Part shown: piece after piece, positions 20,634-61,252 of the stretch
Numbering within the stretch: the stretch's first letter is position 1
How the letters are laid out: each line of letters starts with the position of its first letter
From: an uncultured Planctomycetota bacterium
Lineage (GTDB): Bacteria > Planctomycetota > Planctomycetia > Isosphaerales > Isosphaeraceae
DNA: 64,000 bases
Assembly (NCBI GenBank): GCA_963823665.1
Contig: CAWGMQ010000010.1
Coordinates: 768,001 to 832,000, forward strand
Direction: 5' to 3'
Position numbers and translations under genes: made by a program
Notes under the pieces: generated by a model
The model's database searches: none
Seen by the model: only the letters and a program-made list of their open reading frames with translations
What the model was told of the DNA's origin: nothing

Positions 20634-22534
20634 ATGTCCCCGTTGGCGTCTCTTCAGCAGGCCACGCTCAAGAGCGAGCGAATCCGGATCATCGGGCTGA
20701 TCCTCGTGGTCTGCTTCATCCAGGTCGTGATCGCGATCCGAGCCCTGTTCGGGGGCGTGCCGGAACAACTCGACTTGCTGCCTCGTTTCACCGTGCTGAT
20801 GCTGGCCTCCGTGGCCTATGAGAGTCTGATGCTCGGCATGGTGAGCCGGGCAATCAAGAGGGGGAGCGATCTACCCCTCTGGGCCTGGTCGGCCAACGCC
20901 GGGATCGAGGCCTTGATCCCGACGATCATGCTCATCTTGCTCACCGAAAGTCCGTTCATGGGGCCCTACCGGGCCCTGAGCGCTCCGGCGACCCACGGCT
21001 ATTACATCTTCATCATCCTCTCGACCCTGCGGCTTCGACCGGGCCTCTGCTTCTTGACCGGCCTGGCCTCGGCGCTGGGCTTCGCCGCCGTCACGGCTTA
21101 CACATTCGTCGTGCTACCCGGACAGGCCCGGGTTCGGCCGGCCCGGTCTATCCGCTCCAGGTGTACGCCACTTTCGGCATTCTTTACCTGACCTGTGGCA
21201 CGATCGCGGCGTGGCTCTCCAGCCAGTTTCGCCGGCACGTCCTGGCCGCCCTTGGCGAGGCCGCGATCCGCGGTCAGTACGAGCGGCTGGTGCGTGAGAT
21301 CGCCCAGCGCGAACGGGCCGAGCAGGCGCTGCGAGCCTCGGAGCGTCGCTACCGGCAGCTCACGGAAGAAACGCGCGACGCCATCGTGGTTGCCGACCAG
21401 CAGGGATTGATCACGCTCTTCAACCCCGCCGCCCAGACGATCTTCGGCTACTCGGAAGCCTGAGGTCCGCGGTCAGCCGCTCACGATCCTGATGCCCGCG
21501 GAATTCCACGAGGCCCACTGCGGCGGGTTCCAGCGCTATCTGGATACGAGAGAACCCCGGATCATCGGCCGTACGGTCGAGCTGCGCGGCCGGCGCAAGA
21601 GCGGTGAGATCTTCCCTCTGGAGATGTCGCTTTCGGCAATCGATCTGCCGGACGGAGTCGGTTTCCTGGGCGCGATCCGCGACCTGACCGAGCGGGTGCG
21701 TCTGCAAGGGCGGATCGTCCAGGCGGAGAAGCTGGCTTCGCTCGGATTGCTCAGTGCCGGCGTGGCACACGAGATCAACAACCCGCTGGCCTATGTGATC
21801 AACAACCTCGCTGTGCTCGATCGTGACTTCCACGGACTGGCCAGGGTCCTGGCGGAGTACGAAGAGGCCCGGCCGATTCTCGATGACGATCGATCCCGAG
21901 ATGGCGGAACGGATCGCCGGGCTCACGCTGGAGCACGACCTGCCCTACATCCAGGAGAACCTCGGCCCGATTCTGAAGAGCACGCGGCAAGGGGCCAAGC
22001 GAGTGTCCGAGCATCGTGGAGAACCTGCGCGAGTTTGCCCGGCTCGACCAGGCCGCCATCGACCGGGTGGACCTGAATGCGGCGATCGCGCGCTGCCTGG
22101 AGCTGATCCGGGGCCGGCTGGAAGGGCACCAGATCGACGTGGTACAGAAGCTCGGTGAGATCCCTCCGATCGTCTGCGCCCCGGCCCAGATCAACCAGGT
22201 GATCCTGAACCTTCTGCTCAATGCCCAGCAGGCGATCGAGGAGACAGGACGTGACGGTGGTCGAATCGAGATCAGCACTCAGGCAAACCGACGCGAGGTG
22301 TCCTGGAGATCGCCGACGATGGCTGCGGCATCCCGGCGGAGATTCACTCGCGGATCTTCGACGCGTTCTTCACCACCAAACCCGTCGGCGAAGGAACTGG
22401 ACTGGGCTTGAGCATCAGCCACAGCATCGTCGTCCGATCATGGGGGTCGCATCGAGCTCGAGAGCGCCCCCGGCCAGGGCGCTCGCTTCAGTATCATTCT
22501 TCCGCTTGAGCGAAAAGGAACAGACCAGTCGTGA
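20634..22534 (+). CDS. Membrane-bound PAS sensor histidine kinase (multiple frameshifts; possible pseudogene)
   Basis: TM domain, PAS ([26 protein letters not shown]...[16 protein letters not shown]), H-box [22 protein letters not shown]-box [17 protein letters not shown]-box [16 protein letters not shown]; frame breaks near 21140, 21460, 21885, 22010, 22300 and 22435. Confidence 0.85.
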
Positions 22535-22793
22535 AAGCGGCGATGAAAGGCCTGCGCCTTTTCGAATCAGGCGTCGTTTCGAATGGTCGCCTGTGCAAGT
22601 TCCCTATACGTCCACGAAAGAGGTTAGAATAACGTTCGAGCAGGAGGTCACCCTCGACCTTGAACAGACTTACGCCAGGGCGGCCGAGGATGCTTATCAC
22701 ACTTGATGGAACGCCGGACTGACCAAGAACAAGGCTGCGGACCGCGTTTCGGGACAGGAGGGAGATATTTGGGCCAAGTCGCTGACTTCCCGG

Positions 22794-23455
22794 ATGATCG
22801 TCTTATCGGTGGCGCTGGCCGCCGCGGTCCAGACTCGGGATGCCGCGGGCGCGGATGACCCGTCGCTGCCCAAGGAGCCGCGGTTCACCTTGAAAGACCA
22901 CAAGGATGTCGCCTGGTGCGTGATGTTTGCGCCGGACGGGAAGTCGATGATCACTTGCTCGGGCAACCGAGACGCGAGTGCCGGCGAGATCCAGAAATAT
23001 GATATCAGCACGGGTAAGCCGGTACCGGCGTTCGTCGCTGAAGAGGGTCATGACGTTCGCTGGCTTTGTTTCGCCCCGGACGGCAAGACGTTTGCAACGG
23101 CCGAGTATGACGGGAAGGTGAGAATTCGAGATGCGAAGGCCGGCAAGGCGGGTGTCGAATTCGAAGCGCATCAATGGGGCGTGCAATGCCTCAAGTTCAC
23201 CGGCGATCGCAAGACGCTGGTCACGTGCGGCCGGGACGGGACGGCCAAGGTTTGGGACGTTGTCACTCGAAAGCTCTCGTCTGCGGGACCGATGCCGGCT
23301 TGCTCAAGCTGTGGGACGTGGCAGGGTGGCTCGAACGCAACACGATCCAGGCCCACGACGCGAGCGTCCGCGCGATCGCTTTTTCCGCCGACGGCAAGCT
23401 GATGGCGACGGCGAGTCACGATCGAACGGTCAAACTCTGGGATGCGCCGCGTTGA
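22794..23455 (+). pseudogene. Exported WD40 protein, shortened and frame-broken near 23275
   Basis: Signal-like MIVLSVALAAAVQ; only 4-5 blades (FAPDGK, FSADGKLMATASHDRTVKLWD) with a mid-blade junction. Confidence 0.65.
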
Positions 23456-25006: not shown

Positions 25007-28000
25007 TCATCGAGCGCGACGCTGCGCAGGCTCGGCCGGCATTCGAGTTCTGGCAATTTCCTTTCGCCGGCGTCGCCGGTCTTGCGAAAACAGGGATTTC
25101 AGGCGTGGCAGGTGATCTTTCTGCACACCTTCTTCCACGTCAATTAGCTGGGCGCGAAGCTTGTCTGCGGCAGATGTATTCGGGCTGCGCTTGATCGAAC
25201 GGGGCGCGAATTTCGTCCATCCATGGATTAATGTTTCACAGAACTCCGTGATGCCGGGCGTTTCGAAGTGCCGCCACAGGTCGGCGGTCTCGTTATTGCT
25301 CTTCCAGGCGCTCAGACGATTGCTTTCGCCGGCGCGGCCGACGTTTTTTTCGAAGAACAGGAACGCGGTCAGGAACCGTAGCCAGAGCGATTCCACCTCC
25401 TCCCAGCGGATGTCATCGTTCCAACAGAGGTCGACGACGTCGCCGAGTGCCCGCAGACCCTGCTGGATCGAAGTGTCGGTGGGCGAGTCGACGGGAGCTG
25501 GCTCTGCTCTGCGTTTCTTGTCGTCTGCCAGATGGCTTCGTTTCGCTTGCCCGCCGCCGCGCTCCCAGGCGAGGTACAACAGATTCTCGGCCTGAAGGTA
25601 GGCCTCTAACAGCCCGAGGCGCGCCCAGCGTTCTACGTCCGGCCGGCTGCGGAGGAGGGTCGACCGGGCTTGTTCGAGCGCAACAGCCGCGTGATTCAGC
25701 TTGGCCTTCACCTCGGCCTTTAGATTCTCGAACGCTGCCGCCGGACCATTGAGCCACCGCACGCTCGAGCCGGCGAGCTTCGTCAGGCGTAGATTCTTGG
25801 CGCTTTATTTCCGTCGGCGAGCAAGGCCGCGGCGAGAATGAGCGACTCGGCAGCCTGGAGCCGGATGTCCGTCAGGTCGTCGTTATCGCCAGCACCGTGT
25901 CCCGCGAAGACGGCGGCCTGAGCCTCGTCAAGGGCCCGATTGGGGAACGTTCCCTGGAGGGTGAGCAGCCGCGCTTCGAGAAGCAGTTGAGAGGAATGCA
26001 AGTGGGGGAACACGGCGGACGATAAGTCGCAAGGCATTTGCAGGATCTTACCCAGTTCTTGCGAACAGCCTTCCGCCTCCTTGATGCGAACAAGAGCGCC
26101 GGGCGGGCTGACCAGAACGTCTGGTGGCGGCCGACGCTGCCAGTTCCAGTGTTGGACCTGGCGGAGGGAGAGATCGGCCAGGGCGAGCTGGCACTCGCTT
26201 TGGATCTCGGTTGCTTCGCGGAGCTCAAGGACTTGCTGATTCGGCGTGCGTGTCTTTCTGAGCCGGCGCGAGACGCGCACGGAAATCCGGGTTGCCTTCT
26301 CGAGAGACTCTCGCGCATTCGCGAATTCGAGGCGGCCCGACAGGCAGCGGCCAATCTCTTTGTGGAGAACGGCTCGCCTGAGGAGGGTTCCGGGTCCGAA
26401 CCGCGGGCGAGCGTTGCCGCCGGCTTTTTGTGCGCTTCTCGGGGGCGCAAGCTGCTTCCTCCTGATGGCCAGCGACGTTTCGAAATCTGTCACCAGGAAG
26501 TACACGCGGGCTCGCAGCTCATGAAGCTGCCCACGCAAGTTGCGCGTGGCATCGGCGACCTGGTTTTGAGCACGGTGGCCGCCAAGGGGGGGTAGGAAAC
26601 AATCGAGCTGCGAAGCCAGGGCTCGTATCCAGACGACGACGCGGGACGGGGAGCCCATCACCAACGTGGCCGACGTTTGCTTGAGGAGCGCCCTGACCTT
26701 TCGGATCAAACGCGAACGGTCCTCACGGTTTTCGAATCCTGGCTCTCGGGAGGCCGCGACCAGGTGGTAGGCCGCCTCATAAAGGGACGGCAAACTATCC
26801 GACTGGCGGAGCAGGTCCGTGTACTCATCGGCGATCGCTTCGTGGATCTCGGCCCTGCGCACCTCGAGGACGCCACGGTCCCACAGCATCGAGCGGTAGA
26901 TGAAGTCCCGCGTTTGGTTGTGCATCCAGTAGAAGCCTCCTTCCAGGTTGATCAGCAGGCGGAACTGGTTGAGATCATTCATTATCTGGTCGAACTGCAT
27001 GTCCGCCTGCTCGCGAGAGAGGTTGCTGAAGATCTCGAATCTGTCAGCTAAATGGCGGAGGTTGATGATGCTTCGGGGGCGGCGAAACGTGGAAGCGATG
27101 GTCAAGAGTGCGCGGTACGCGGGCTCGGGGACTGCGGTCTTGGACCGAGTGTTCGCCCGACAAATCATCACTTCGTAGAGCGTATGCGTGGTCACCTCTA
27201 GCAGGCGCGGCGTGTCGCCTTCGAGTTTCTGGATTTTCATCTTCGCATCCGAGATCAGCGCTTTGACGTGCGCGTTGCGCTTCAGCTTTCCTCCCGCAAG
27301 TGCGCGTTCGAGGACTGTTGTCAGGTATGCGGACTGGCCCGCCTTGGGGGCGGCGGGCCCGACGATGTCGCATGCGATGTAGTTCAGTTGGGAGACGACG
27401 TAATCGAATAGCGGCAGGGCTTGCGGCACCACTTTGGTCGCCTCCAAGGGGGTCAGTGCGACGCAGAGCTTCGATTCGCCGAGCTGGTCCAACGCACCTG
27501 ACCCACCCTTGTTCCCCGCGATGCACCGCAGAAAAGCATAGAGCAGCAAGGATTGCCAGAGCGCCTCCTTCATGTGTGATTTGAAGCGCCGGTCGTAGAC
27601 GCTGTGTGCGAAGTCGTGGCGGCCGAATTCGCCGGCTGAGTCGAGCGACACCACATACTTGCCACGCCTCAGCGCGTAGACTAACTGATTCGCAAGGGGC
27701 CGGGCGATTTGCTCGGCGATTCCCAGGGCGTCGTCGAAGTTCTGAGCGGACGGCGCTTCTGCTTTGAGGGCGGCGAGCGCCTTCTTCCGTAGCGCCTTTT
27801 CGTGTTTCCCGGGGGGCAGGACAAGGGTCTTTGGGGTCACGCTCGTGTCATAGTGGCGAATCTGGTCGAGGAGCATGGCCACCAAAGCGCGGAGAGTCGG
27901 AATCTCCGCGAGTGCGCACCAGATGGATTGGTGCGAGGCATCGACGTTGCGGACATGCGCGGCGAGCCGCGACGTCGTGCCCGAACCGGCCTTGTAGCAA

Positions 28001-29611
28001 GCGTAGATCGTGACGCTCTGTATCAGTCGTGCCGAGTCGTCCTCTAGAACGCGCAGGGTTGGCTTCGCCGCATCGGTCGCGACACGCAAGGTCGCGGCCC
28101 CTTCGCGGCGGTGCCCGCGGTCGGGATCTTCCTCGAACGGGGGTACCATCTCGAGCGATGGGTACGGCGTTCGGCTGGCGGGATGGAGGCCCACGAGCCG
28201 CGCGTGCAACTCTCGGAGAAATAGTCCGCCGCTACGATATCTCACGACCGACACGGTGCCGCTGTTCGAAGCCAACTGCGCAGCTTGCGACACGCTGTTC
28301 GGGACGCTGTCGCGGTAGACCCACAGGATCTTCGGGACCTTCAACTTCTTGTAGTCGTGGTTCAAGGCGAGACGATCGATCAGGCTCATTACCCGTCGGT
28401 CGGCGCCGCCATAGCCAATGACCAGCACGAGCGCGTCGTTCGGGAAGTAGTCGACGAATCGCGTGAGGTTCGCCTCGTCGAGGGGCACGTCCAAGCTCTC
28501 GCCGACGCGTAACCCAAACGTGCCGCCGTGGAGCTTGACCACCGAGGGATTGTCATCGAAAAGACTCGCATCGGGAATCGGTCCGTTTTCGGGCAATTCG
28601 AAGACGGCAGGGTCGATCATCTGCGCGGAGAGACTGCTCGATCCGTGTGTCAAAATTGGTCGTCAGCCAGAGATTCCAGCGAAGGCTTTCCGTCAGCAGA
28701 GCGAGAATCTGGTAACCGGGCGACGGCAGGCCGTTGCGGACGAGTTGATCAAACAGCGAGTCGGCGAGCGCCGGGTTACCCAAGGTGAGCATGCGCATGA
28801 GCGCCCGCCAGTCGACTCGAAGTTTCCGCAGTGCGCTCGCACGCAGATTGTTCAGCCGGCCGACGATCGTCAGTTCGGTGGACGGGCCGTCGCGTTGTTC
28901 GGACGCATCGATGCGGGTCCCGGCGGTCTCCGGCGGCCCGACCATCGCATTCGATCGGACCGATCGATGGTCTGGCTTGTGATGCTGATATTGCTTGATC
29001 ACTTCGATTAGCGCGTCTTCCATCGCTTCGAACGCGCCGCCCTTGGGGCATCCTTCGTGTGGGGTCTGGGTTGTGAAGACGCCGGTCAGCGCCGGCTGTT
29101 CCCGCTGCAGGTAGTCGTTGATCACCTGGAGCCGGACGCCGCCCAGGGGGTTGCCTGCAGGTTCGGCGAACTGCTTCTGGAACGAGTTGGACGATTTTTC
29201 ATGCGTCCAGTTGGCCAGTGAGCTCGGGTCATTGTGGTATACCGTCAGCAGTTCGGTGTTAAGCAGGTGCAGGTCGGGCCAGCCGGCCTCGAGGAGGTAG
29301 TCGTGGTAGATCGAAAGGGAGGCCGATTCCGCGCTCGGCCCATCGGCATTTTGTCCTTTCTGATTCAAACTTCGCCGGCGCTTCACGTCGATCATCGTCT
29401 TTACCTTGGCGAAGTAGTCGATGAGCATCTCCGTCGTCGGAATACCGGACTCGACCGAGAGTCCGGCCCCGACGAGAGGGACAATCGGCACTCCCTTGCG
29501 TAGCGCGATCGTGATCTGCTCGAAAGCCTCGAGCGGGGTCAGCCTGCGGTAATGAGTGCGCTCACGTTCCTTGTCGCCTGAACGTGCGCGTTGTTGCCGC
29601 GATTCGCCCAT
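25007..29611 (-). CDS. Very large SIR2-family protein with degenerate STAND-like NTPase, winged-helix and TPR-like region (frameshifts near 28625 and 25785)
   Basis: PLVGAGLSVESGIPT, WLTTNFDTRIEQ, VVKLHGG, LVIGYGGAD (SIR2_2 motifs); IYACYKAGSGTTSRL (Walker A-like), YVVSLDSAGEF (Walker B-like); FYWMHNQTRDFI, IHEAIADEY, YEAAYHL; helical repeats. Three consecutive ORFs join without gaps. Confidence 0.78.
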
Positions 29612-29667
29612 AGGATTGCCCTCGGAGAGTACGGCGGGCAGGTTTCGCTTATTCGTCGACTCCGTTC

Positions 29668-30381
29668 TTACTTGCTACCGTCGCGCCACACGCCGTCGCG
29701 ACCGAGGCTCTGGTTGGGCCGGAAGCTCGCCTTGTATTTTAGCGACGGCGAGAGGTCTCCGTGATAGCCGAGATAGACGTGAGGCAGATTGAGCGCCCTG
29801 GCCCGGTCGAGGAGACAGAGCACGTTCCAGATTCCGAGCGAGCGGTCGGCGTGACTGGGGTCGCGAACGAAATAGATCGCCGAAAGGCCACCCGGCAGCT
29901 CATCAACGTAACCGACTCCGACGAGCGCGTCGTCAAGGAAATAACACCACTCTTGCGTGGGGAAGGGGTTCAAGACGAAGCTGCTGGCGAAATCCTTCAA
30001 GTCGCCGGGAGCGTAGGCTGGCCAGCGTCTTGTTTGGGACCGATCGGCGTGGAATCGGTCGAACAGCGTGACCTTTTCGGACGTCACTGCCGGCGTGCCG
30101 ATCTGGAAGCGGACGACCCCCTGGTTCGCCTGTCGAGTTCGGCGCTGACTGCGGTCGGGCCGGAAGCGGGCGGCATCCACTCGCAGCGAGCGGCAGGCCC
30201 CGCTGCCTGAGCAAGTCTGCCGGAAAACCGTGTGACCGAACCGCCGCCAGCCCGCGAGCAGGTGCGCCATATACTCGCTGGGGTCCAGCCTCGATACCCA
30301 CAGATATTCACGCTCGCAAGTGTGGTCAGGCTGATAGGGGCACGGGCTCGCGGGCTCGGTAAAGCGGCTGATGGTCTCCAT
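29668..30381 (-). CDS. bpt: ATE-family aminoacyl-tRNA--protein transferase (bacterial Asp/Glu leucyltransferase Bpt)
   Basis: SPCPY, LLAGWRRFG, CRSLRVD..F.PDRSQRR, LSAIYF..DP, RSLGIWNVL, HVYLGY, LKYKASFRP. Confidence 0.88.
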   Translation of the reverse strand: METISRFTEPASPCPYQPDHTCEREYLWVSRLDPSEYMAHLLAGWRRFGHTVFRQTCSGSGACRSLRVDAARFRPDRSQRRTRQANQGVVRFQIGTPAVTSEKVTLFDRFHADRSQTRRWPAYAPGDLKDFASSFVLNPFPTQEWCYFLDDALVGVGYVDELPGGLSAIYFVRDPSHADRSLGIWNVLCLLDRARALNLPHVYLGYHGDLSPSLKYKASFRPNQSLGRDGVWRDGSK

Positions 30382-30452: not shown

Positions 30453-31169
30453 TCAGAACCATTCGTTCTTAGGTACGTTATAAGGATCGTCGTCGTCGTC
30501 GAACTCATCCGCGTCGAGCGCATCGGCTGAGTCAAATTCACCCTCGATGTCGGCAGCGGAAGCTTCGATCAAGAAGTGCCCGCCCGCAGCCTGGATCCGC
30601 TGCATGATGGCCGCGGCCTCTGCGGACGATTCATGCGGGCCCTGAACATAGAACGGCTTGCCGTTGCGTCCGAACGTGAATTGTTCGGGGCAGGCCGAGG
30701 GATCGATCCCGGCCAGCAGTCTCGCTGCATGGCGGTAGTCGGGGTGGGGCGGCAGGCCGAACGATCCGGCGTAGTCGACGGCTCCCTGCACAATCTTCAC
30801 GAGACAGGCGGGAGCAATGGCAGTCACCTTCTGCGTTTCGTTCATTCGCCCAACCAAGTCGTCGAAGTCTTGCTGCGTGCCTGCTTTCCAGAACGCATTT
30901 TTCACTCCAAGGCAATGCACATCCACGAGGAAAACGGCGAAGACAAGCTGTCCTTCGGACTCGCGCCGGGCGATCGCCAGGGACCCGATCCCGCCCTTCC
31001 AGATGTTGGTCGAGACTACCGCCGTTGTCACGGGCCATTTCTCGGCTGATTGAAGGCGGACATTGGGGTCGATCGAGCTGCGCATTTGCAACTTGGAACG
31101 CTTTGCTGCGCGCTTGGCCTTTTGTTTCGCGACTCGCTTCTGCTGCCGCGCTCCGTGATTACCGGCCAT
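30453..31169 (-). CDS. Conserved hypothetical protein (basic N-terminus, acidic tail)
   Basis: GGAGGAGG RBS; RQQKRVAKQKAKR; FLVDVHCLGVKNAF, GAVDYAGSFGLPPHPDY, FTFGRNGKPFYVQGP. Confidence 0.8.
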   Translation of the reverse strand: MAGNHGARQQKRVAKQKAKRAAKRSKLQMRSSIDPNVRLQSAEKWPVTTAVVSTNIWKGGIGSLAIARRESEGQLVFAVFLVDVHCLGVKNAFWKAGTQQDFDDLVGRMNETQKVTAIAPACLVKIVQGAVDYAGSFGLPPHPDYRHAARLLAGIDPSACPEQFTFGRNGKPFYVQGPHESSAEAAAIMQRIQAAGGHFLIEASAADIEGEFDSADALDADEFDDDDDPYNVPKNEWF

Positions 31170-31384: not shown

Positions 31385-34300
31385 CTACGAAGTAGGATCC
31401 GGGTAAGCAATCGACCGAGGCTGGGCGAGGTGCCGCTCCGCCGAAGGGATCGAAGCGATGGTTGGTAGTTTACTCGCGCGGCCGGCCAGGTTTTGGAACG
31501 TGATGGATGTTTGGTAGTTGGTCCCAGACTCGCCCGCGCCTGCTCCATCCAGGAGAACGCCCGAGGCACCTCTCAATCCCGATGGTGACTCGCCGTTGAC
31601 GGTCAGAGTGTAGCGCTTGTGGATGTTGAGTCGCCCCGCCGGTATGAGCGTCACGGTGTGAGATGCGGAGTCGTAAATGGCTTTTCGGACGACGATCCGG
31701 TCCCCCGCCTTGCTGCGCCGGCGACTCGGGCCAGCGATCGCGTAATTCGCCGCGTTCTCCGCTGAAACGGCCTCGAGCGGGCTGTTGAAGTAGAGGTCCA
31801 GAAACGTGGGCTGCCAGTGGAAGCCGTAGCGATTCACTCGCTTGACTTGCGGGCCGTCTGTCGTGACGACAAGCGACGACGAGCTTGAGGACGAGAGATT
31901 CCCACCGTTGGAGAAAACGGCGCTGAAGGAGTGTGATCCCGCGGACAACGATCCGATCGTCAGCGTCGCGAATCCGTTCGTGACCGGTTCCGTGCCGAGA
32001 AGTGTGCTGCCGTCGCAGAATGCGACGGTGCCGACGACCGGCGGGTTACCCGGCGACGTTGCAACGACGTTCGCGGTAAGGGTCATTCCCTGCGATCCGG
32101 CCGCGGCGCTGAGTGTCGTATTAGTCACAGCCTGGATCACGTCGACGGACACGGGCGCCTCGACAGTGGCGGCTGGATAGTTCGTGTCGCCCGAGTAGAT
32201 TGCCGTGATGATGTGGTTGCCGACGGCCAGAGACGCAATCGGGAGGCTGGCAGTCCCGCTGGGATCGCCCGTCGGAATGAATGGCTCGGTGCCCAGGTAA
32301 GTGTTCCGGTCGTAGAAGGCGACCGACCCGGTCATCGAAGCCGAGCCTGAAGGCGTCGCGTAGAACGTAGCCGTGAGGGTTACCTCCTGGCCGTAATACG
32401 ACTTCGCAAGCGAATTGACGATGACGCCGTAGATCGAACTGGCGTTAACCGTCAGCGCGCAGGTCTGACTTCCCATACCGCCGGCGCTATCTGTCACGGT
32501 CACGTCCACGGTGAATGGCGAGCCAGCGGCGTTCGTCGGTTTTCCGCTCAGCAGTCCGGTGGTGCTGAGCGACAAGCCCGGCGGGAGACCGGTGGCGACG
32601 AAACTGTAGCCGGTGCGCGAGCCTCCGGAGGCTGTGAGTTGCTGGCTATACGCATCGCCCACCGTCCCGGCCGGCAACGTTGCTGGGCCGATCGAAATCG
32701 GTGACGTGGCGGCGACCCTGAGAGTACCGCCGACCGTGGTGAAGTTGTAGTTGGCGGCGGTCAATGTGCCGACCGCGACGGAAATCGGATACTGGCCGGG
32801 AGGGCTGTTGATGGTCGCGGTCGTCGAGAGGACGGGTGCGCCGGTGATCACGCTTTGAGTGTCGCCGTTCTCGAACCCGGAGAACGCGTAAGTCAGGGGT
32901 GGGTTGGCCTCGTTCGGCGGGCGAGTCAGGTCGTTGGCAGCGACGATGAGAATAGCTGGCGTGATGGAGAGTGTTCCATTCACATAGGCGATGGTGTAGT
33001 TGGAATCGACCGCGCCGCCGACGGTGATTTCATACTTGCCGGTATTACCGGTCGAGCTGGCGATCGTGCTCAGGGCCGGTAGCGTGCTGAGATTTGCCGG
33101 TGTGCCACCATTGACGAAGCCCTGGTAGCTTGCGGTGAGTGTCGGGAGCGCCGAGCCGTAGACCATGGTTTGGTTGTCGGCGGTGATGGTCAGAGCGGCC
33201 TGTGTGATGGTCAAGGTTTCGGTGGCGTAGGAGATGGAGTAGTTGGGATCGGCGGCGCCGCTTGCGGTGATGGTGTAGGGACTGCCGGAGACCTGGCTGC
33301 TCGATGAGGCCGTGGTCGTGAGCGTGGGCTGGGTGGTCAAGCTGGCCGAGGTGTCGCCGTTGACAAAGCCTGAGTAGCTCGCCGTAAGGGCCGGTGACGC
33401 CGCGCCGTATGCTTTGGTCTGGCTGTTGGCCGTGATTGTCAATCCCGCCGTGGTGACGGTGAGGCTTCCCGCGACGTACGTGATCGTGTAACTGGAATCC
33501 ACCGCGCCGCTGGCGGTGATGGTGTAAGGACTGCCCGAGACATGGCTGCTCGAGGTGGCCGTGGTCGAGAGCGTGGGCTGGGTGGTCAAGCTGGCTGAAT
33601 TGTCGCCATTGACAAAGCCGCTGTAAGTGGCCGTCAGGGCTGGAATCGCTGCTCCATAGACTTTGGACTGGTTGACGGCGGTAATGGTCAGCGCGGCCGT
33701 ATTGACCGTCTGGGTCAGGCTGGGAGACGTGCTGCCTAAAAAATCCTCCGGTTGCTGTGTAGATGACACTGATCGAATGGATTCCGGCCGTCATCGTCGA
33801 GATGGCGAACGTCGAAGTGGCCGTTGTTCCGCTGCCGCTCAACGTTGTCCCTGCGCCGAGCAAGTTTGACCCGTCATAGAATGCGACGCTGCCGGTCGGG
33901 ACGCCATCGCTGCCGCTTGTGTTCGCAACAGTGGCCGTGAAAGTTACCGTCTCGGCGTAGACAGAAGGGTTGAGCGTCGAACTGACTGTCGACGTGGTGA
34001 CCGCGCCAACGCTCGTCAACGTCACGGCATCGTTCTTGTAACTGATCTGAAACGCCTGCCCGCCGGCGACGAATGTCGACCCTTCCGGAAGAGAAGCGAA
34101 CGTGCCTGAGATCGCGGCCGTACTCTGGATGATCGTATAGGCATTGCCAACGACGGTTATGGGTTTGCCCGGGGAGACCGGGCTGGTCGCATGAGGTGTT
34201 CGATACCGACAGGTCTGCCTACGTGGCGGAGATTGACGCGACCGTCTGGCTGTTGTTGGCGAGGTCGGGGTCGGTGGTCGTCGTGCTCACGTTCGCGACG

Positions 34301-36691
34301 TTCGAGATCGTCGTACCGTCGGGTGTACTGGGCGATGGCATGACGACGACGGCGAAGCTTGCCGAGGCACCCGGGGCCAACGTGCCGATCGTCGCATTGA
34401 TGGTGCCGGTCCCGCCTGGCGGGGGCGTGGTGAGATTGAATGCCGGTCCCGAGATCTGCTTGGCGGAGACGAAGGTGGTGCCGGCAGGCACGACGTCTCT
34501 GAGGGCCACGGTCTGGGCGTTGCTGGGGCCGGCGCTCGAGACCGTGATTGTGTAAGTGATGGGGTTGCCGGCTATTACAGGGCCTGGTGCGATCGTATTG
34601 GTCACCGACACGTCCGCCTGTGCGGCGGTGAGATAGGTGTTGGTCTGGGTGTTGTCGGTGGGGTCGGGATCGGTGGTGGCGCCCGTGATGACTCCGGTGG
34701 TTGTGAACATCGTTCCGGCGGGCGTGCTCGGCGACAGGAGCAGCACCAGGTTGAAGCTCGCCGAGGCGCCGGCGGGCAACGTGGCGATCGACGCGGTGAT
34801 CGTGGAGTTGCCGCCCACCTGGGGGTTGGCGATCGTGAACGTGGGTCCGGACGTCTGGCCGCCGGAGATGAAGGTCAGATAGGGCGGAAGGGTGACCGAT
34901 CCCACGACGGTCTGAGCGTCGCTGGGGCCGGAGTTGGCGAGCGTGATGGTGTAAGTGATCGTTTTTCCCGCTTCGTATGGACCTGCCGAGGTTGTTGCGG
35001 TTGCCGATAAATCGGCCTGAGTGGCCGTGATGCTGGTGGCGATCGCGGTATTGTTGGCGAGATTGGGGTCGCTCGTCGTGGAGGTCACGCCGACGGAGTT
35101 GGCGATCGCTGTTCCGGCCGGCGTACCTGGCGACACCAGGAACACGACGGTGAAGGTTGCGGAGGCACCCGAGGCAAGCGTGGCGATCGAGGCGGTGATT
35201 GAGCCGGTGCCGCCCTGGTTGGGGCTGGTGAGGCTGAACGCAGGCCCCGAGATCTGGGTGACCGAGACAAATGTCGTATCGGCTGGCACGAGGCCGGAGG
35301 CCGACACGTTCTGGGCGTCATCGGGGCCCGCGTTTGCGATCGTGACCGTATCGGCGAGCGCAGAGCCCGCGAGGACTGTGCTGGCCGTCGTCGAGTTGGT
35401 CACTGATACGTCGGCCCCTGTCCCGGCGACGGAGCCAGTCGTGACGGTTGAGGTGTTGTTCCCAAGGTCGGGATCGGTTGTCGCGGTGCTCACGTCGGCT
35501 GTGTTGCTGATGGTCGTTCCGTTTGGCGTGCCTTGTGCGACCATGACGACCACCGTGAAGCTTGCCGAGTCGCCTGCTGGAAGCGTGCCGATCGACCCGT
35601 CGATCGTGCCAGTGCCGCCAACCGTCGGACTCGAGAGATTGAACGCAGGCCCCGAAGTCTGCTCAGCGGAGACGAACGTGGTGTTGGCCGGGACGAGGTC
35701 CGAGAGCGCCACGCTCTGGGCATCGCTCGGGCCCGTGTCCGAAACGGTGATCGTATACGGGATCGGGTCGCCCGCGAGCACTGGGCCGGGCGCGATCGTT
35801 TGATTTACTGACAGGTCAGCCTGCGTGGCGGTGAGGTTTGATACCGTAGTGCTGTTGTTAGCGAGATTCGTGTCGCTCGTGTCGGAGTGAATCGTCGTCG
35901 TGTCGGTGATCGTCGTTCCGGCCGGCGTACTGGGGAGAACCTGGACGACGAACGTGAAGCTCGCCGATGCGCCCGCGGGGAAGGTGGCGATGAACGCAAC
36001 GTCGTTGCTGCCGGGCGATGCCGCGCCGAACGGAGGCCCCGAAGTCTGCGCTTAGGAGACGAAGGACGTATTGGCCGGCACCAGGTTCGACGCGCGCACG
36101 TTCTGGGCGTCGCTGGGGCCGGCGTTTGCGAGGGTGATCGTGTAGGCGATCAGGTTGCCGGCCAAGATCGTGCCGGAGGGTGCCGAGGTCGTCGCCGATA
36201 AGTCCGCCTGCGTGGCGGTCAGATTCGTGATGGTCTGGCTGTTGTTAGCGGGGTTGGGATCGTCGGAGGATGTGGTCACGCTCGCCGTGGCCGAGATTGT
36301 CGTTCCCGCCGGGGTGCTGGGCGATATCAGAACCACGATGTTAAAAGTCGCCTGCGCCTGAGCCAAGCGTGCCGATCGTCCCGGAGATCGCGCCGGTGCC
36401 ACCGGGGGCGGGAGTGGCCAGATTGAACGAGGGTCCGGAGGTCTGTGAGTCGGAAACAAAGGTGGAGTTGGCCGGCACGACGGTCGAGAGCGCCACGGTC
36501 TGGGCGGCATCAGGACCGGCGTTTGCGACAGTGACGGTGTACGAGACATTGTTGCCCGACAGGAAGGGGCCGGACGAGGTGGTCATATTCACCGATAAAT
36601 CCGCGATCGAGAGCAGGACTCGATCTTCACATTCTTCAATTGCTGGTATCGATCGGCGGGTTCGGCGCGAGTTTCGATGTGTCAAAGACAT
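31385..36691 (-). pseudogene. Giant surface adhesin-like gene: LEPR-xLL signal, about 6 DUF11 repeats, Ig-like (Big_3), 4 MBG repeats, putative Ig and planctomycete C-terminal domain; disrupted
   Basis: RRSIPAIEECEDRVLLS; repeats ADLSV...YTITV.N.GP.DAQ.V...FVS..QTSGP; LTITA.NQ.K.YG...LTA.YSGFVNG; tail GPQVKRVNRYGFHWQP. In-frame TAA at 36052-54 and TAG at 34219-21, frameshifts near 36360, 34190 and 33740, and a fusion junction near 34155. Confidence 0.85.
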
Positions 36692-37217
36692 CGGTAAGGG
36701 CTCCCGGTGGGTTGGCTCGTGTGACGCACGTTGTGCGGAGCGAAAGCGACTGGTTTCTCTCAGGAGCGAAGAGAAGCCATTCATGGCGGGCAACCATAGC
36801 CCGGATGTCGCGCTAAAAAGATCCGACGTGGTCTTAGCTTCGAGTGCTGGACCAGGTCGGCTTACGCGTCAACGAGCCGCCCGACCTAGCCGGGCTGCCG
36901 TATATCTCGTCGTCCAACTTAATTCAGTAATGCTGAGATCGGAGCTGCGGGCGAACTTGCGTGAAGCCACGCTCACTCACTGTTAAAGATTGCGAGCATT
37001 CCCGAGGCGACAACCGTGGGAAGCCAATCCGGCTCGAGCGGGCCGAGTTTGTCCAGAAATTCACCTCGCATCCGGCTCGTGGTTTTCGGCATGCGAATTG
37101 CCAGTCTATGAGAACCATGATGTCGTCCCGGTTTCGGCGAACTCTTCGCTCCCGTTTTGTGCGGGGCGGTTGGCACGATTTCGGGCGCAGGGCGCACGTT
37201 TATTGAAGGAGACTTCG

Positions 37218-52854: not shown

Positions 52855-52890
52855 CGTCGAGAGGTGTCAGAATCTCCGAAGGAGCAAACC

Positions 52891-55800
52891 ATGCCCGAGA
52901 CCGCCGATCGCATCGAATCGCTTTTCGCCGGCGCCGTGGCGCTGCCGCACGAGGAACGTGGGGCGTATCTGGAGCGCGAATGCTCCGGCGACCCAGCCGT
53001 GCGAGAGCGCGTAATGGCTCTGCTCAGAGCCCATGATTGTGCGGGTCACGTGATCGACCGGCCCGTAAACGGCGACCAGGGCCAAACCGCGGCGTACGCT
53101 CCGACGAGCGAACAACCCGGTACGATCATCGCCGGACGCTACAAGTTGCTCGAGGAGATCGGGCAGGGGGGCATGGGGACGGTCTGGGCGGCCGAGCAGA
53201 CTACGCCCGTTCGGCGCAAGGTTGCTCTCAAGCTGATCAAGGCGGGAATGGATTCGCGGAGCGTTCTGGCTCGGTTCGAGGCGGAACGGCAGGCGCTGGC
53301 GCTCATGGACCACCCGAATATTGCCAAGGTCCTGGACGGCGGACTGACCGAGTCGGGCCGGCCCTATTTCGTGATGGAATACGTCAAGGGTGTGCCGATC
53401 ACCGAGTATTGTGACGCCACGCGACTGAGCATCAAGGAACGGTTAAACCTCTTCACCCAGGTCTGCGCCGCGCTTCAGCACGCGCACCAGAAAGGGATTA
53501 TTCACCGGGACTTGAAGCCCTCAAACATCCTGGTCGCGCCTTATGACGACAAGGCGGTCCCCAAGGTGATCGACTTCGGGCTGGCCAAGGCGATGCATCA
53601 ATCGCTGACCGAGAAAACGTTGTACACAGCCCATGAGACAGTGCTGGGCACACCGCTTTATATGTCGCCGGAGCAGGCCCAGCTCAATAACCTCGACGCC
53701 GATACGCGCTCGGATATCTATTCACTGGGTGTCTTGCTCTACGAACTCTTGACCGGGACGACGCCGCTGGAACGACAGCGGTTCAAGGAGGCCGCTTGGG
53801 ACGAGATCCGGCGGATGATTCGGGAGGAGGAACCGCCGCGGCCGAGCATGCGATTGAGCTCGACGGATACGTTGCCTTCGCTCGCGACATTCCGTCATAC
53901 GGAGCCTGCGAAGCTCATGAAGCTGGTGCGCGGGGAGCTCGACTGGATCGTCATGAAGGCGCTCGAGAAGGACAGGGCTCGACGGTACGAAACGGCGAGC
54001 GGTCTCGTCCGCGACATTAAGCGTTACCTGGACGACGAGGTTGTCGAAGCGCGTCCGCCCAGCACCGGCTATCGGTTCAGGAAATTCGTCCGCCGACACA
54101 GGGGGCAGGTAATTGCCGCGGGATTGCTGATCGTTGTCTTGCTGGCTGGTGTGGTGGGGACGACCTTGGGATTAGTCCGGGAGGCGCGTGCCAACGCCCG
54201 ACTGGCGGCATCGCTCGCCCGCGAGCGGAAGACGAACGCCGACCTGGCCGCTGCCAACGCCAAGGTCGAGGCGCGTTACAACCTGGCCGTCGAGGCCATC
54301 AAGACGTTCCACACGGGGGTGAGCGAGGATTTTCTGCTCAAGGAAGAGAAGTTTAAAGACCTGCGCAACCGGCTTTTGAAGTCAGCCCAGGACTTTTACC
54401 AAAAGCTCGCCAAATCGGTCGGGAATGCGACCGAGCGGGAATCCCGGCGCGCGCTGGCCGCATCGAACTTTGATCTGGCCGCGCTGACCGAGAAGGTGGG
54501 ACGCAAGGACGACGCGCTCGCGGCACACAGGGCTGTACTGGCGGCACGAGAGGAGCTAGCGGACGAGTCGGAGCCTGACGCCGAGAGCAAGGCCGACGTT
54601 GGCCGGAGCCTGACAGCGGTCGCCGCCCTGCTCGACGACACCGGTAAGAAGGGCGAGGCGCTCGAGGCCTACCGCCGTGCGGAATCCGTGCTGGGCGGGC
54701 TGGCGGGCGCGGATCCCGCGGCGCAAGCCGCGCTAGCGAACTGTCGCACGAGGATGGCACACTTGCTGCTGGCAGAGGGCCGGGCGGACGAGGCCCTGGC
54801 AGCCTGCCGGCAGGCTCGGGTCGCCCAGGAAGCGCTGGCGGCGGCTCCCGGGACCTCGAACGACGCCCGCCGCGACCTCGCGGCCACGATCAACGAAATC
54901 GGCATCGTGCTGCGAGGGAGGGGCAAGTTCGCTGAGGCAGAGGCTGAGTGCCGCGGCGCCCAGGCGATTTTGCGGAAGCTGGTCGACGAGAACCCCACCG
55001 TTGCCGAGAACCGCGGCAGTCTGGCGTCCAGCTACCATCTCCTCGGCGGCCTCCTGGCACAGCTCGGCAAAACAACGAGGCGGAGGCGGAGTATCACCAG
55101 GCGTTGCGCATGTTGCAACGGCTGGCGGACGAGCACCCGGCTGTCACGCGATTTCGACGGAATCTGTCGATTGCTCATCGTTCGCTCGGCAGCTTGCTGA
55201 CCTGGGCCGGCAAGCCGGCTGAGGCCGAGATCGAGCTGCGCACGGCGCTGGCGACCGACCGGAAGCTGGCGGATGAGAACCTGGCAGTCACTGAATTCCG
55301 CGAGCGCCTCGCATCCAGTCACCAGGGACTCGGTGACTGGCTATGGATGGCCGGCAAACCGGCTGAGGCCGAGGCCGAATTCGCGCGGCTCAAGTGATCT
55401 ATCGGCAACTGGCCGACAGCAACCCCGCCGCCGTTGGGTTCCGGGGAGCCCTGGCGAACGGTCACCGCCAGCTCGGGCTCCTGGTGGAGCAGACCGGCAA
55501 GCTGCGGGAGGCCGAGGCCGAGTATCGGAGTGCGATTTCGATTTATCGCGAGCTGGCCACCGAGAACCCAACCGACACCCAATTCCGCAACCACCTGGCG
55601 GAGAGCCACGCCAGCCTCGGCAGCGCGCTTGTACTCTGTGGTCCGCCGGCAGAAGCGGAGGCCGAGCTCCGCGCGGCGATGGCGATCTATCAGAGGCTCG
55701 CGGACGATGATCCCGCCGATGCGCGAGTCCGCAGCGCCCTCGCGAAAACCCACAAGGACATCGGCTTCCTGCTCTGGGTGATGGGCAAGCCGGTGGACGC

Positions 55801-56407
55801 GGAGGCCGAGTACCAGAGGGCGATCGTGATCCTTGAGAAGCTGCTGCATGATCAACCCGGCGAACCCCTTATCCGCCAGCGCCTCGTCACGTCCCTGAAC
55901 TACCTCGGCGGATTGCACCGCTGGGCCAATCGGGCTGCCGAGGCCAGGGGCGTCTATGAACGGGCGATCGCCCTGAATGAACCGACGGTCCGCTCGAATC
56001 CCACCGAATTGACGAATCGCCTCCAATTGCTCTGGTCGATCCGGGGGCGCGGGCTTACCCTCGGCCACCAGGGGGACGCCACGGCGGCGGCGGCGGAGAC
56101 TCGCCGGGCGCTGGCAATGTGCGATGGACTGCCGACGACGGGCTGGGCCCTTGTGGAAACCGCCTGCTGTCACGCGGCGCTGGCTGGCCTGGCCGGGCGG
56201 GATCGATCGGGGATCTCGGCGGAGGAGGGAGAGGCCGAGGCCACCCGGGCAATGGAACTGCTGCGCCGGGCCTTCACCGTGGGTTACCGGCATTTCCACG
56301 CGATCCGGATCGAGACGGCCCTCGACCCGCTGCGCAAACGCGACGACTTCAAAAAACTGATGGCGGAGTTGGAGAAGGCGCCCCCACCACAGCATGAGAA
56401 GAAGTGA
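52891..56407 (+). CDS. Ser/Thr kinase - TM - TPR protein, copy 2 (frameshifts near 55075 and 55390)
   Basis: Kinase domain nearly identical to copy 1; longer TPR array; tail LDPLRKRDDFKKLMAELEK; AAGGAG RBS. Confidence 0.92.
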
Positions 56408-58407: not shown

Positions 58408-61178
58408 CTACTCCGGCAGCGGCGTGGCGTCCCAGATCCGCACGGTCATGTCCAAGGAAGCGGTGATCAAGCGGTGGCCGTCGGGGCTGAACGCAAGATC
58501 GGACACAATCTCGTTGTGTCCGTTCAGCGTCAGGGTTTCCTGCCCCGTCGTTAGGTCCCAGACTTTCAAGGTCCCACCAGGGAGCCCCCCGGCCAGGCGT
58601 TTGCCATCGGGGCTGAATTCAAACCTGAAGGCCGTGAAGTTGTTGAGACGCGGCGAGACCTCGTGGCCGCTTTCCGCATCGAGTATACGCACCCCGCCAC
58701 CGGAGCATTCTACGGCCAGCCGCTTTCCATCGGGGCTGAAGCATAGCCTTTGGAAGAATGCCCCCATCGGCAGTTCGGCCTTGCATAACTCTCGGCCCGT
58801 GGCGGGATCCCAGTTTTTTACCACCCCGCTGTACTCGGCCGCTGCCAGGCGAGCACTGTCTGGGCTGAATGAGAACCACGCAAGACCGCGGAGTACCGGA
58901 AACGTGCGGAATTCGGCGCCTTTGTAAACGTCCCACACCTTCAATCCCCCTCCCGGGCCCTTGCAAGCGAACCATTTCCCATCCGGGCTGAGCTCTGTGC
59001 TCGGCCGATCTTCTGGGCTGTCGTGTTTGAACGCGCGAACCATTTTGCTGGTGGACATATTCAAGATCATGACGTTCTTGCCCTCGTCGGTAAGCGCCAG
59101 ATGCTTCCCATCGGACGCGAAGTCATAGTTCACGGCCTTGCGTCCGAGCTTGATGGGCTCGCCCAACGGTTCGCCGGTCTCGGAGTTCCAAAGGTGAATG
59201 GTGCTTCCATATCTGCCTGTCAGGGCGATGCGTCCATCGGGGGAAAGCGCGATTTCATTTCTCGGTTGCCTGATCCCGGGGATCGGAGTGACATCGCGGT
59301 CGGCTATCACGTCCCACACTTTCACGCGTCCGTCCGTCCCCGCCGAGGCGATGCGTGTGCCGTCGGGACTGAAGGCACAATCGACGACGGACCCATGGTG
59401 CCCCTTGAACGCGCGGAGTCGCTGACCAGTGCCGGCGTCCCAAAGCTCCAGACCAGACTCGAACCCCACGGCCGCCAGTCGTTTCCCATCGGGACTGAAT
59501 TTGAGGCGGCCGCTAATGGGCCCGTCTCCCGGACAAATCTTGACAAGTTTGCCGGTGCCGGCATCGAGGATTTGCACGTCGCGCGTCGGACCTGACACAG
59601 CCAGACGTTTGTCGTCCGGGCTGAAGGCCATGGAAATGACTGAATTTTTCATGTCCTTCACAAGAAGCTCGCGACCGGAGAACGCATCCCATACCTTCAG
59701 CACGGACGGCGCAGCAACAGAGGCCACGCGCTTGCCGTCGGAGCTGAAAACTAGACTCCCGAGGGAAGGAAGCTTATCGATGGACACGATGGCCTTACGT
59801 GTATCCAGGTCCCAGATCCTTATCTCAGCCAAATTATTAAATTCCATTCCACCTGCGTTGAAGTCCTCCGCCCGAGATGCCAGGTGCTTGCCGTCAGGGC
59901 TGAAGACAACCTGCCGGAAGAAGTCGACCGTGTGCCCTTCCAGTGTGGCGATCAGCTTGCCCGATTCGATGTTCCAGATGCGAATCCTCTTGTCGCGGCC
60001 GCCCGCGGCGAGAAGCTTGCCATCCGGGCTGAGAGCGCCCGTGCGAACTTCGCCTGTCGCACCCTCGAGCCCTATGGTCAGCGGTGTCAGTGTCACTGCA
60101 GCCCAGAGCTTGATTTCACCGGGTGCCGGGGAGCCTGTTTCCCTCCTCTCCGTACTCCCGACGCTGAGGAGCCGTTTGCCGTCTGGCGTCCAGGCCACCG
60201 TCGTCGCAAGCCCGACGTGGGCATTCACCGTGCTCAGGCGCGTGCTGGGCCTGGGCGGCTCCTCTTCCTTGATGATGCGGCGAATCTCGTCATAGGCCGC
60301 CGTCGCGAACCGCTGATGGTCGAACGGCGTCGTCCCGGTCAACAACTCGTAAAGGAGCACGCCCAGGCTGTAGACATCGCTGCGAATATCCACGTCAAGC
60401 GCGTTGAGCTCAGCCTGCTCCGGGCTCATGCAGAGCGGAGTGCCGATCATCTGCGTGAACCGGGTGTAGATGGTCTTATCAGTCAACTGCTGGCCAATCG
60501 CCTTGGCGACGCCGAAGTCGATCACCTTGACCACCGGCACGCCGTCGTGCGGGCGACCAGGATGTTCGACGGCTTCAAGTCGCGGTGGATGATGCCCTTG
60601 CCGTGGGCATGCTGGACCGCCTGGCAGACGGCCAGAAACAGATCCAGGCGCTCGCGTGCCGTGAGCTGCTGCCCGTCGCAGTAATCAATGATGGGGATGC
60701 CTTTGACCAGCTCCATCACGAAGTAGGGGAGCCCGCTGTCCGTGGTGCCGGCGTCGAGAACGCTGGCAATATTGGGGTGGTCCATGAGTGCCAGGGCCTG
60801 GCGCTCGGCCTCGAACCGGGCGATGATGTCGCGCGTGTCCATGCCGGGCTTGATGATCTTGAGCGCGACCTTGCGGCGAACCGGGTGCTGCTGCTCGGCC
60901 ACGAAGACCAGGCCCATCCCACCCTGGCCGATCTGTTCCATGAGCTTAAACGGGCCGATGACCGTGCCGGCGCGTTCAAGGATTGGCTCAAAATCCTCAG
61001 TCGCATCGGATTGGGATGAGAGATTCCCCAGAAAACCGCCCGAGGCGTCATGGGCACGCAGCAGTGATTCGATTTCGTGGCGCAGCTCTCCATCGGAGGC
61101 GCAGGCGTGGTCGAGGAACGCCGCTCGGCGCTCTGGAGACAACTTGACGGCGGCCTTGAAGACTGCAGAGTCGGACAT
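58408..61178 (-). pseudogene. Ser/Thr kinase - WD40 gene with a frameshift (~60550) and an in-frame internal deletion (~60230)
   Basis: Kinase motifs to [13 protein letters not shown] run directly into [17 protein letters not shown]; the ELDWIVMKALEKD segment and TM present in the paralogs are missing; GTPLCMSPE has C in place of the usual Y. Confidence 0.8.
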
Positions 61179-61252
61179 GGTATTCTCCCTCGCCTGGATG
61201 GTCTTTCATCATCCAATGCGAGAACGGAGAGCAAAAGCCCGGTGAGTTTTTT

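Follow-up and report, generated by a model that had tools for sequence, protein, structure and literature searches.

A scattered bacterial gene family in which a SIR2 domain with intact catalytic residues is joined to a STAND module with a decayed P-loop and a TPR-like solenoid

The gene at positions 25007-29611, on the minus strand, of the 64,000-nucleotide stretch analysed here (the window; positions 768,001 to 832,000 of contig CAWGMQ010000010.1, assembly GCA_963823665.1, from an uncultured Isosphaeraceae bacterium of the Planctomycetota) was found to belong to a scattered and apparently undescribed bacterial family. In this family a SIR2 domain that keeps its catalytic residues is followed by a STAND module, the P-loop of which is decayed throughout the family, and by a long helical solenoid resembling tetratricopeptide repeats (TPR). 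It is moderately probable, in our judgement, that this one gene encodes a stand-alone, ligand-gated NADase immune receptor in which a pseudo-NTPase serves as scaffold. More tentatively, we propose that an old and widespread NLR-like family gave up nucleotide binding and retained the STAND fold as a ligand-gated scaffold for an active NADase, as a form halfway between Avs and DSR. The features of the gene are the following.

25007..29611, minus strand: whole gene, about 1,530 codons with two frame breaks, colinear with intact homologues
28192..29509 (approximate limits), minus strand: anti-phage NADase-type SIR2 domain, in which break 1 falls between the catalytic Asn and His
29470-29456 (GAGLS), 28663-28649 (TTNFD), 28536-28525 (KLHG) and 28416-28399 (GYGGAD), minus strand: SIR2 motifs
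28810..29270 (approximate limits), minus strand: variable all-helical insertion of about 150 aa in the SIR2 small subdomain, consisting of helices alone in the model of a paralogue
28617..28625, minus strand: break 1, a frame change within SIR2 in a short GC dinucleotide run, where the tblastn frames switch
27379..28056 (approximate limits), minus strand: STAND nucleotide-binding domain (NBD) with decayed P-loop; KAGSGTT at 27993-27973, Walker B-like VVSLD at 27654-27640
26884..27336 (approximate limits, from the model), minus strand: helical domain and winged-helix domain (WHD); conserved FRRxR at 27087-27070 and GGxxWMHxxxR at 26931-26908 (YWMHNQTR)
25010..26856, minus strand: arm and TPR-like helical solenoid, the predicted sensor; the model reaches break 2, and the last reading frame corresponds to family profile positions 1112-1307
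25783..25804, minus strand: break 2, a frame change in a variable solenoid linker beside short A runs, where two open frames overlap

The gene is read as three open reading frames (ORFs), 28553-29611 (352 aa), 25783-28653 (956 aa) and 25007-25762 (251 aa). A first-pass annotation, made by a model from the sequence, had proposed that these rejoin into one gene of ~4.6 kb, and comparison with intact relatives confirmed this. The ORFs had been called abutting; in fact their stop-to-stop frames (28556-29674, 25786-28662 and 25010-25804) overlap. Frames -1, -2 and -1 of the window are colinear, without gaps in coverage, with intact single proteins of 1,457-1,668 aa (tblastn), and many of the 22 relatives found for the 956-aa ORF are single proteins of 1,300-1,670 aa. 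The read-through (1,533 aa, with X at the breaks) is 54% identical to the intact 1,460-aa relative P0055 over 1,530 columns and 38-44% identical to four further relatives. For GTDB genomes, the best 80 of 281 confirmed stretches were taken and three with a SIR2-only match (L080, L082 and L091) were dropped before any counts were made; the remaining 77 loci comprise 55 with a single full ORF, 13 split ones and 9 partial ones. Three separate genes are ruled out by these 55 full ORFs and by the differing sites at which the split loci break. Programmed frameshifting is ruled out as well: break 1 parts the catalytic Asn from the His, neither context contains a slippery heptamer and the break positions are not shared.

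The SIR2 domain is better conserved than the solenoid (mean identity in the family alignment 35-37% versus 17-22%) and starts within ~45 residues of the protein start in the window gene and its homologues. Taken singly, the three ORF pieces score no Pfam family, because break 1 cuts SIR2 between the catalytic Asn and His; PADLOC SIR2 profiles match both halves. Pfam SIR2_2 was found in 17 of 17 intact homologues (E <= 7e-5, 16 of them over the cut-off) and no other Pfam family scored over the cut-off. The best PADLOC and PDB matches of the SIR2 part were SPARSA-type Sir2, and NCBIfam gave weak sirtuin matches. All motifs named in the first-pass annotation were located in the window gene, and the catalytic residues are kept across the family: among 186 non-redundant full-length members the TxNxD motif retains its Asn in 181 and its Asp in 185, and the HG motif its His in 177. 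These Asn and His residues correspond to N133 and H171 of DSR2, mutation of which abolishes NAD+ cleavage (PMC11087589). A CxxC zinc motif after HG is absent in all 186 members.

For the SIR2 fold, a model was made of the first 488 aa of a paralogue encoded on contig C6 of the same genome (pLDDT 84.6); it has a helical small subdomain. With this model the top Foldseek matches were SPARSA Sir2 (E 1e-7), KomC, DSR2 and ThsA, and VIA-align gave Z 17.5 for ThsA (rmsd 3.8, 252 residues aligned) and Z 15.2 for the SIR2 domain of EfAvs5. Profile and structure matches together are in line with the earlier assignment to the anti-phage NADase type. The spacing from GAGLS to TTNFD is 269 aa here, compared with ~117 aa in SPARSA Sir2 (from alignment), which points to a helical insertion of ~150 aa; an insertion had indeed been noticed, at the larger size of roughly 200 aa. 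It varies widely, with a family median spacing of 192 (range 97-308), and is the least conserved block of the family (mean pairwise identity 13%). The genome of the window holds 13 SIR2_2 matches over the Pfam cut-off, a large sirtuin-NADase repertoire.

For the part downstream of SIR2, the 956-aa ORF up to break 2 was modelled, with the last ~260 aa outside the model (pLDDT 84.5, pTM 0.87). It shows an NBD-helical domain-winged helix fold followed by repeats, that is, a NOD (nucleotide-binding oligomerization domain) plus a sensor. The top Foldseek match was the archaeal STAND-TPR protein 6mfv (E 9.5e-7), with SAMD9 second (E 1.6e-5) and further STAND matches to Avs3, Apaf-1 (Z 11.2) and plant NLRs. 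On superposition, 6mfv gave Z 19.2 (rmsd 12.3, 467 aligned) and the MalT NOD (8bob) gave Z 17.8 against model residues 164-734 (rmsd 4.3, 366 aligned), while residues 600-945 form helical pairs like those of a TPR solenoid (3gw4, Z 15.2, rmsd 2.5, 193 aligned). On this model the middle region is predicted to adopt the fold of a STAND module of the MalT type, joined to a solenoid like that of TPR proteins, which agrees with the STAND fold, winged helix and helical repeats suggested before. Searched by sequence against the PDB, the STAND profile returned nothing meaningful; the language-model neighbours of the family are SIR2-NB-ARC-TPR proteins. One relative without a SIR2 match, P0116 (1,533 aa), has two separate stretches matching the STAND profile before its solenoid; it could be a fragment into which a large stretch was inserted, or a duplication.

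Another important finding was the state of the P-loop. KAGSGTT lies in the loop between the first NBD strand and helix (strand-loop-helix, model residues 214-237), and a profile alignment to a lysine-bearing SIR2-STAND-TPR neighbour, though weak (probability 16%, E 0.0015), places GSGTT on GTGKT with Thr at the Lys position. The Lys within KAGSGTT is thus not the catalytic one; the first-pass annotation had likewise read the motif as lacking the catalytic Lys. In the family as a whole the Walker A column has Lys in 1 of 186 members, and the Walker B column has Asp in 108, Asn in 41 and Tyr in 24, so that the family departs from the motifs canonical for the STAND superfamily (GxxxxGK[ST] for Walker A, an acid for Walker B). 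The loop varies in length and sequence without an invariant column, and in the second of two deep groups of the family it is short, often with an aliphatic residue at the Lys position. Residues further on are better kept, for instance the FRRxR arginines (171/186 and 173/186) and, in GGxxWMxxxxR, the Trp (165/186) and the WHD Arg (162/186), with the WHD His at 69/186. The decay strongly argues that ATP hydrolysis was lost. It is less sure that nucleotide binding as a whole was lost, since SAMD9, which is without the same lysine, still holds ATP; of the earlier wording, "inactive NTPase", the family-wide decay of Walker A therefore stands and the inactivity is best called probable.

The family is large and its distribution is patchy and accessory. 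A HMMER scan gave 407 representatives (50% identity) at E <= 0.001, the weakest of which may share SIR2 alone, and 273 at E <= 1e-10. From 199 aligned members of at least 1,150 aa, a 90% filter left the 186 used above, so that there are at least 186 non-redundant full-length members, of 1,172-1,875 aa. The 77 GTDB loci fall in Planctomycetota (32), Verrucomicrobiota (16), Acidobacteriota (10), Pseudomonadota (7), Myxococcota (5) and others (7); at least eight phyla carry the family, and the planctomycete label first given to it was too narrow. In a profile search, 8 of 120 genomes from the window's taxonomic family had the gene, as did 11 of 400 from its phylum and 4 of 7 from one genus, which bears out that homologues are not core genes. 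Intact copies occur in cultured strains, namely Singulisphaera sp. Ch08, Luteolibacter sp. Populi, Nitrosomonas oligotropha Nm75 and Methylobacter tundripaludum OWC-G53F. A quick tree of 60 members has two deep groups in which the phyla interleave (16 changes, minimum 7, shuffled mean 25.6); this fits transfer or old paralogy and proves neither.

How such a receptor may work can be outlined by analogy with Avs5 (PMC11897194, PMC12931631), with DSR2 and with the Avs7/Dsr1 pair (PMC12803255), from which the most likely steps were taken. At rest the solenoid would be folded back on the pseudo-NOD. Binding of a foreign, probably phage, protein by the solenoid would cause a shape change, which the STAND module, predicted to be ATP-dead, would relay as a scaffold. 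The SIR2 domains would then assemble and destroy NAD+, and the infected cell would stop. NADase activity, ligand sensing, assembly and an anti-phage role are all predicted from Avs5 and DSR2.

Several observations weigh against this NADase immune receptor. Two Avs5 proteins, EfAvs5 and PaAvs5-1, do not work without their Walker A lysine (PMC11897194, PMC12931631). In a wide structure search deacylase sirtuins scored Z 16.2 and 15.8, close to the Z 17.5 of ThsA, and therefore the fold alone leaves the SIR2 chemistry unsettled. Hits of a STAND-only profile carried SIR2 in 9 of 9 cases in a weak, word-limited search, giving no sign of effector swapping; Avs7, by comparison, has at least 20 effectors (PMC12803255). 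The window itself is not a defence island, and the siting of homologues in such islands, which the first-pass annotation had wished to see checked, found no support: PADLOC matches (1e-8) occurred in 28 of 229 neighbour ORFs and in 10 of 92 control ORFs (Fisher p 0.85), and a specific defence match at 8 of 73 loci and at 1 of 20 control stretches (p 0.68). These counts come from 229 of 256 picked neighbour ORFs, chosen by a simple composition score, and from a small control taken from 10 genomes of the class (20 stretches, each of 8 kb), and they register single-profile matches, not whole systems. Viral contigs yielded 14 short SIR2-only matches and no full-length relative, and plasmid and phage collections yielded no family match. 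Finally, this genome has three copies of the gene, and each is interrupted.

Across the loci no conserved partner gene recurs; the recurrent neighbours are generic kinases, ABC and two-component proteins and transposases, and no MoxR/vWA neighbour recurs. A minority of loci (L021, L027, L059, L062 and L065) are clearly mobile or defensive, with integrase, methylase, DruE-like or ICE (integrative and conjugative element) genes alongside in L021, L065 and L027. In L062, from an Acidobacteriota genome, a SIR2-STAND-TPR gene with an intact Walker A (L062:5402-8938, plus strand) lies directly upstream of the family member, so that active and decayed forms adjoin. One control stretch (L111, G000:C8:200001-208000) happened to fall on a defence island of the window's own genome, with type III methyltransferase, AbiU-like and DrmD-like helicase genes.

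One alternative keeps the immune role and differs in the switch: the STAND module would still bind a nucleotide as a lock, in a non-canonical pocket like that of SAMD9, with arginines of the helical and winged-helix domains in place of the lysine. SAMD9, with Gly for the Walker A lysine, holds ATP-Mg (10.64898/2026.02.02.703423; PMC5445408), and the high retention of the two FRRxR arginines and the WHD Arg reported above would suit such a pocket. In SAMD9, however, the loop is always GGT, a His compensates for the lysine and Walker B has two acids, whereas in our family the loop varies in length and sequence, 78 of 186 members have lost the Walker B Asp and only 69 retain the WHD His. We regard this nucleotide lock as unlikely.

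Similarly improbable is a role outside phage defence, in which the protein would be a regulated NAD+-consuming switch of large-genome bacteria. Such a switch would serve dormancy, death under stress or conflict signalling of another kind, and its trigger, as for MalT-type STANDs, would be a metabolite or a host protein. The housekeeping-like neighbourhoods without defence enrichment, the regulator MalT as nearest NOD structure, the fixed SIR2 partner and the absence of the family from phage and plasmid collections are all in line with it. Nevertheless, the gene is patchy even within a genus and interleaved across phyla, its SIR2 is of the zinc-free NADase type, and a minority of loci lie beside the integrase, methylase, DruE-like or ICE genes named above. 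That the protein is a helper or executioner unable to sense alone and activated in trans by ATP-using STAND sensors elsewhere in the genome is very unlikely: P-loop-independent helper NLRs exist in plants and animals (PMC3478704), this genome has its 13 SIR2_2 matches and the L062 homologue adjoins a gene with an intact Walker A, but no partner gene recurs among the loci and the protein carries a variable solenoid of sensor size of its own.

The two breaks in the window copy are probably assembly errors, and we hold this with good confidence. The window contains at least five more genes that are spread over several frames (20634-22411, a PAS histidine kinase; 22707-23452, a WD40 protein; 31385-36793, a DUF11/MBG adhesin; 52855-56404, a kinase-TPR protein; and 58411-61205, a kinase-WD40 protein), which points to frequent indels in this assembly; both paralogues are likewise interrupted. 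Splits are, moreover, concentrated in one assembly series: of 17 loci with "MFD" isolate names in their titles 9 are split, compared with 4 of 51 others (Fisher p 2e-4, a value that overstates the case since three of the nine are one genome), and the split sites differ between loci. We take the MFD series to be a long-read one. The alternative, that the breaks are real and the window copy is a decaying pseudogene of an otherwise functional family, is unlikely. All three copies in this 16.5-Mb genome are interrupted, one of them by an in-frame TAG, and neither break is spanned by any of 11 short-read pieces identical to the window and ungapped (four DNA runs, one study). Against decay stand the unrelated split genes of the window, the concentration of splits, at differing positions, in one series, and the catalytic motifs of the window copy, all of which are intact. 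Of the two divergent paralogues, both adjoining a Ser/Thr kinase gene, the one on C6 (L008:8746-13176, minus strand) has a single in-frame TAG right after SIR2, and the one on C8 (L009:6981-11866, plus strand) has three frame changes.

Among known systems, Avs5 (AVAST type 5; PMC11897194, PMC12931631) and DSR2/Dsr1 (PMC11087589; PMC12803255) are closest in plan. Avs5 is likewise a single gene with an N-terminal SIR2 domain with catalytic Asn, a central NOD and a sensor at the C terminus, but it requires the Walker A lysine and the Walker B acid, whereas 185 of the 186 members of our family are without that lysine; the family is also distinguished by its length of ~1,500 aa, its MalT-type NOD and its long TPR-like solenoid. 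Avs5 chains ranked only 28 and 49 in Foldseek (E > 0.004) against the NOD-sensor model that lacks the last ~260 aa. DSR2 and Dsr1 share the SIR2 NADase with the same Asn and His and a helical solenoid sensor, and no ATP switch is described for them. Dsr1 is described without a STAND domain, however, and DSR2 as a middle domain plus solenoid, whereas our family keeps the whole NBD-HD-WHD fold (HD, helical domain). Dsr models of PADLOC and NCBIfam gave weak matches at the SIR2 level (E ~0.003) in single members. The family thus resembles Avs5 and DSR2 and falls outside the definition of each, because the Walker A lysine of Avs5 is missing and a STAND fold, foreign to Dsr, is present. The earlier phrase "between Avs and DSR" holds as a description of the architecture alone.

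Degenerate STAND modules are already known, from KpAvs8, SAMD9, Avs9, the iSTAND modules and P-loop-independent plant NLRs. KpAvs8 (PD-lambda-4 family; PMC13581612) is a STAND-TPR sensor of phage proteins with degenerate Walker motifs that suggest no ATPase activity; there, decay is reported for one member of a capsid-sensing family (a legend sets KpAvs8 beside EcAvs8), whereas here it is family-wide and tied to SIR2. SAMD9/SAMD9L and the bacterial Avs9 (PMC5445408, PMC12680541, 10.64898/2026.02.02.703423) have the same SIR2-STAND-TPR order and a lysine-free Walker A, but SAMD9 binds ATP, its SIR2 was judged unlikely to bind NAD and its effector is an AlbA_2 nuclease. The SIR2 domain of our family keeps its catalytic residues, and Pfam found no AlbA_2 match in the homologues. 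The iSTAND and iSTAND2 modules (Kaur et al., PMC7159879, PMC8195603) are likewise inactive STANDs, for which a role in detecting invaders within conflict systems has been predicted; they form the third component of operons with MoxR and vWA genes, whereas our family stands alone and has no Pfam iSTAND match. The MalT/PH0952 STAND clade (8bob, 6mfv) provides the best structural matches for NOD, arm and TPR region, although at only 11-14% sequence identity to the family. Its members are nucleotide-binding regulators that are not known to carry SIR2.

We found no published description of a family that stands alone and in which a P-loop decayed throughout accompanies a SIR2 domain with its catalytic residues intact, in a search that left most subscription papers outside. 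The family names and accessions tried were absent from seven supplementary files of a STAND survey (Lee et al. 2026; 589 clades, 90 sensor clusters); the large tables of that survey were not covered and may catalogue the family unnamed. PADLOC gave no match outside the SIR2 part of the family. Being invisible to Pfam, PADLOC and NCBIfam beyond SIR2, and missed by defence-island logic, the family points to immune genes overlooked in poorly studied phyla. The Avs5 receptors tested so far need an intact P-loop. With a family of at least 186 diverse proteins that retain the NADase site and the whole STAND fold but lost the ATP motif, one can test directly whether NLR-type sensing can do without the nucleotide switch, and ask what holds a lethal enzyme off in its absence. 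If nucleotide binding was indeed given up altogether, as proposed more tentatively above, a natural ATP-free NLR exists across Planctomycetota, Verrucomicrobiota, Acidobacteriota and Myxococcota that defence-island mining has overlooked.

The neighbours of the gene in the window are an arginyl-transferase-like gene, a GDSL hydrolase, adhesins, kinases and ECF sigma factors. Promoter and terminator scans gave results at chance level. A 238-aa ORF without Pfam or PADLOC match (30453-31169, minus strand) shares the strand of the sirtuin gene and is located upstream of the arginyl-transferase-like gene. Head to head with the paralogue on C6, a gene at L008:13479-18104 (plus strand) encodes a 1,542-aa protein with a Ser/Thr kinase and a P-loop with intact GK, to which we presume, judging by eye, that a C-terminal FGE-sulfatase-like region belongs.

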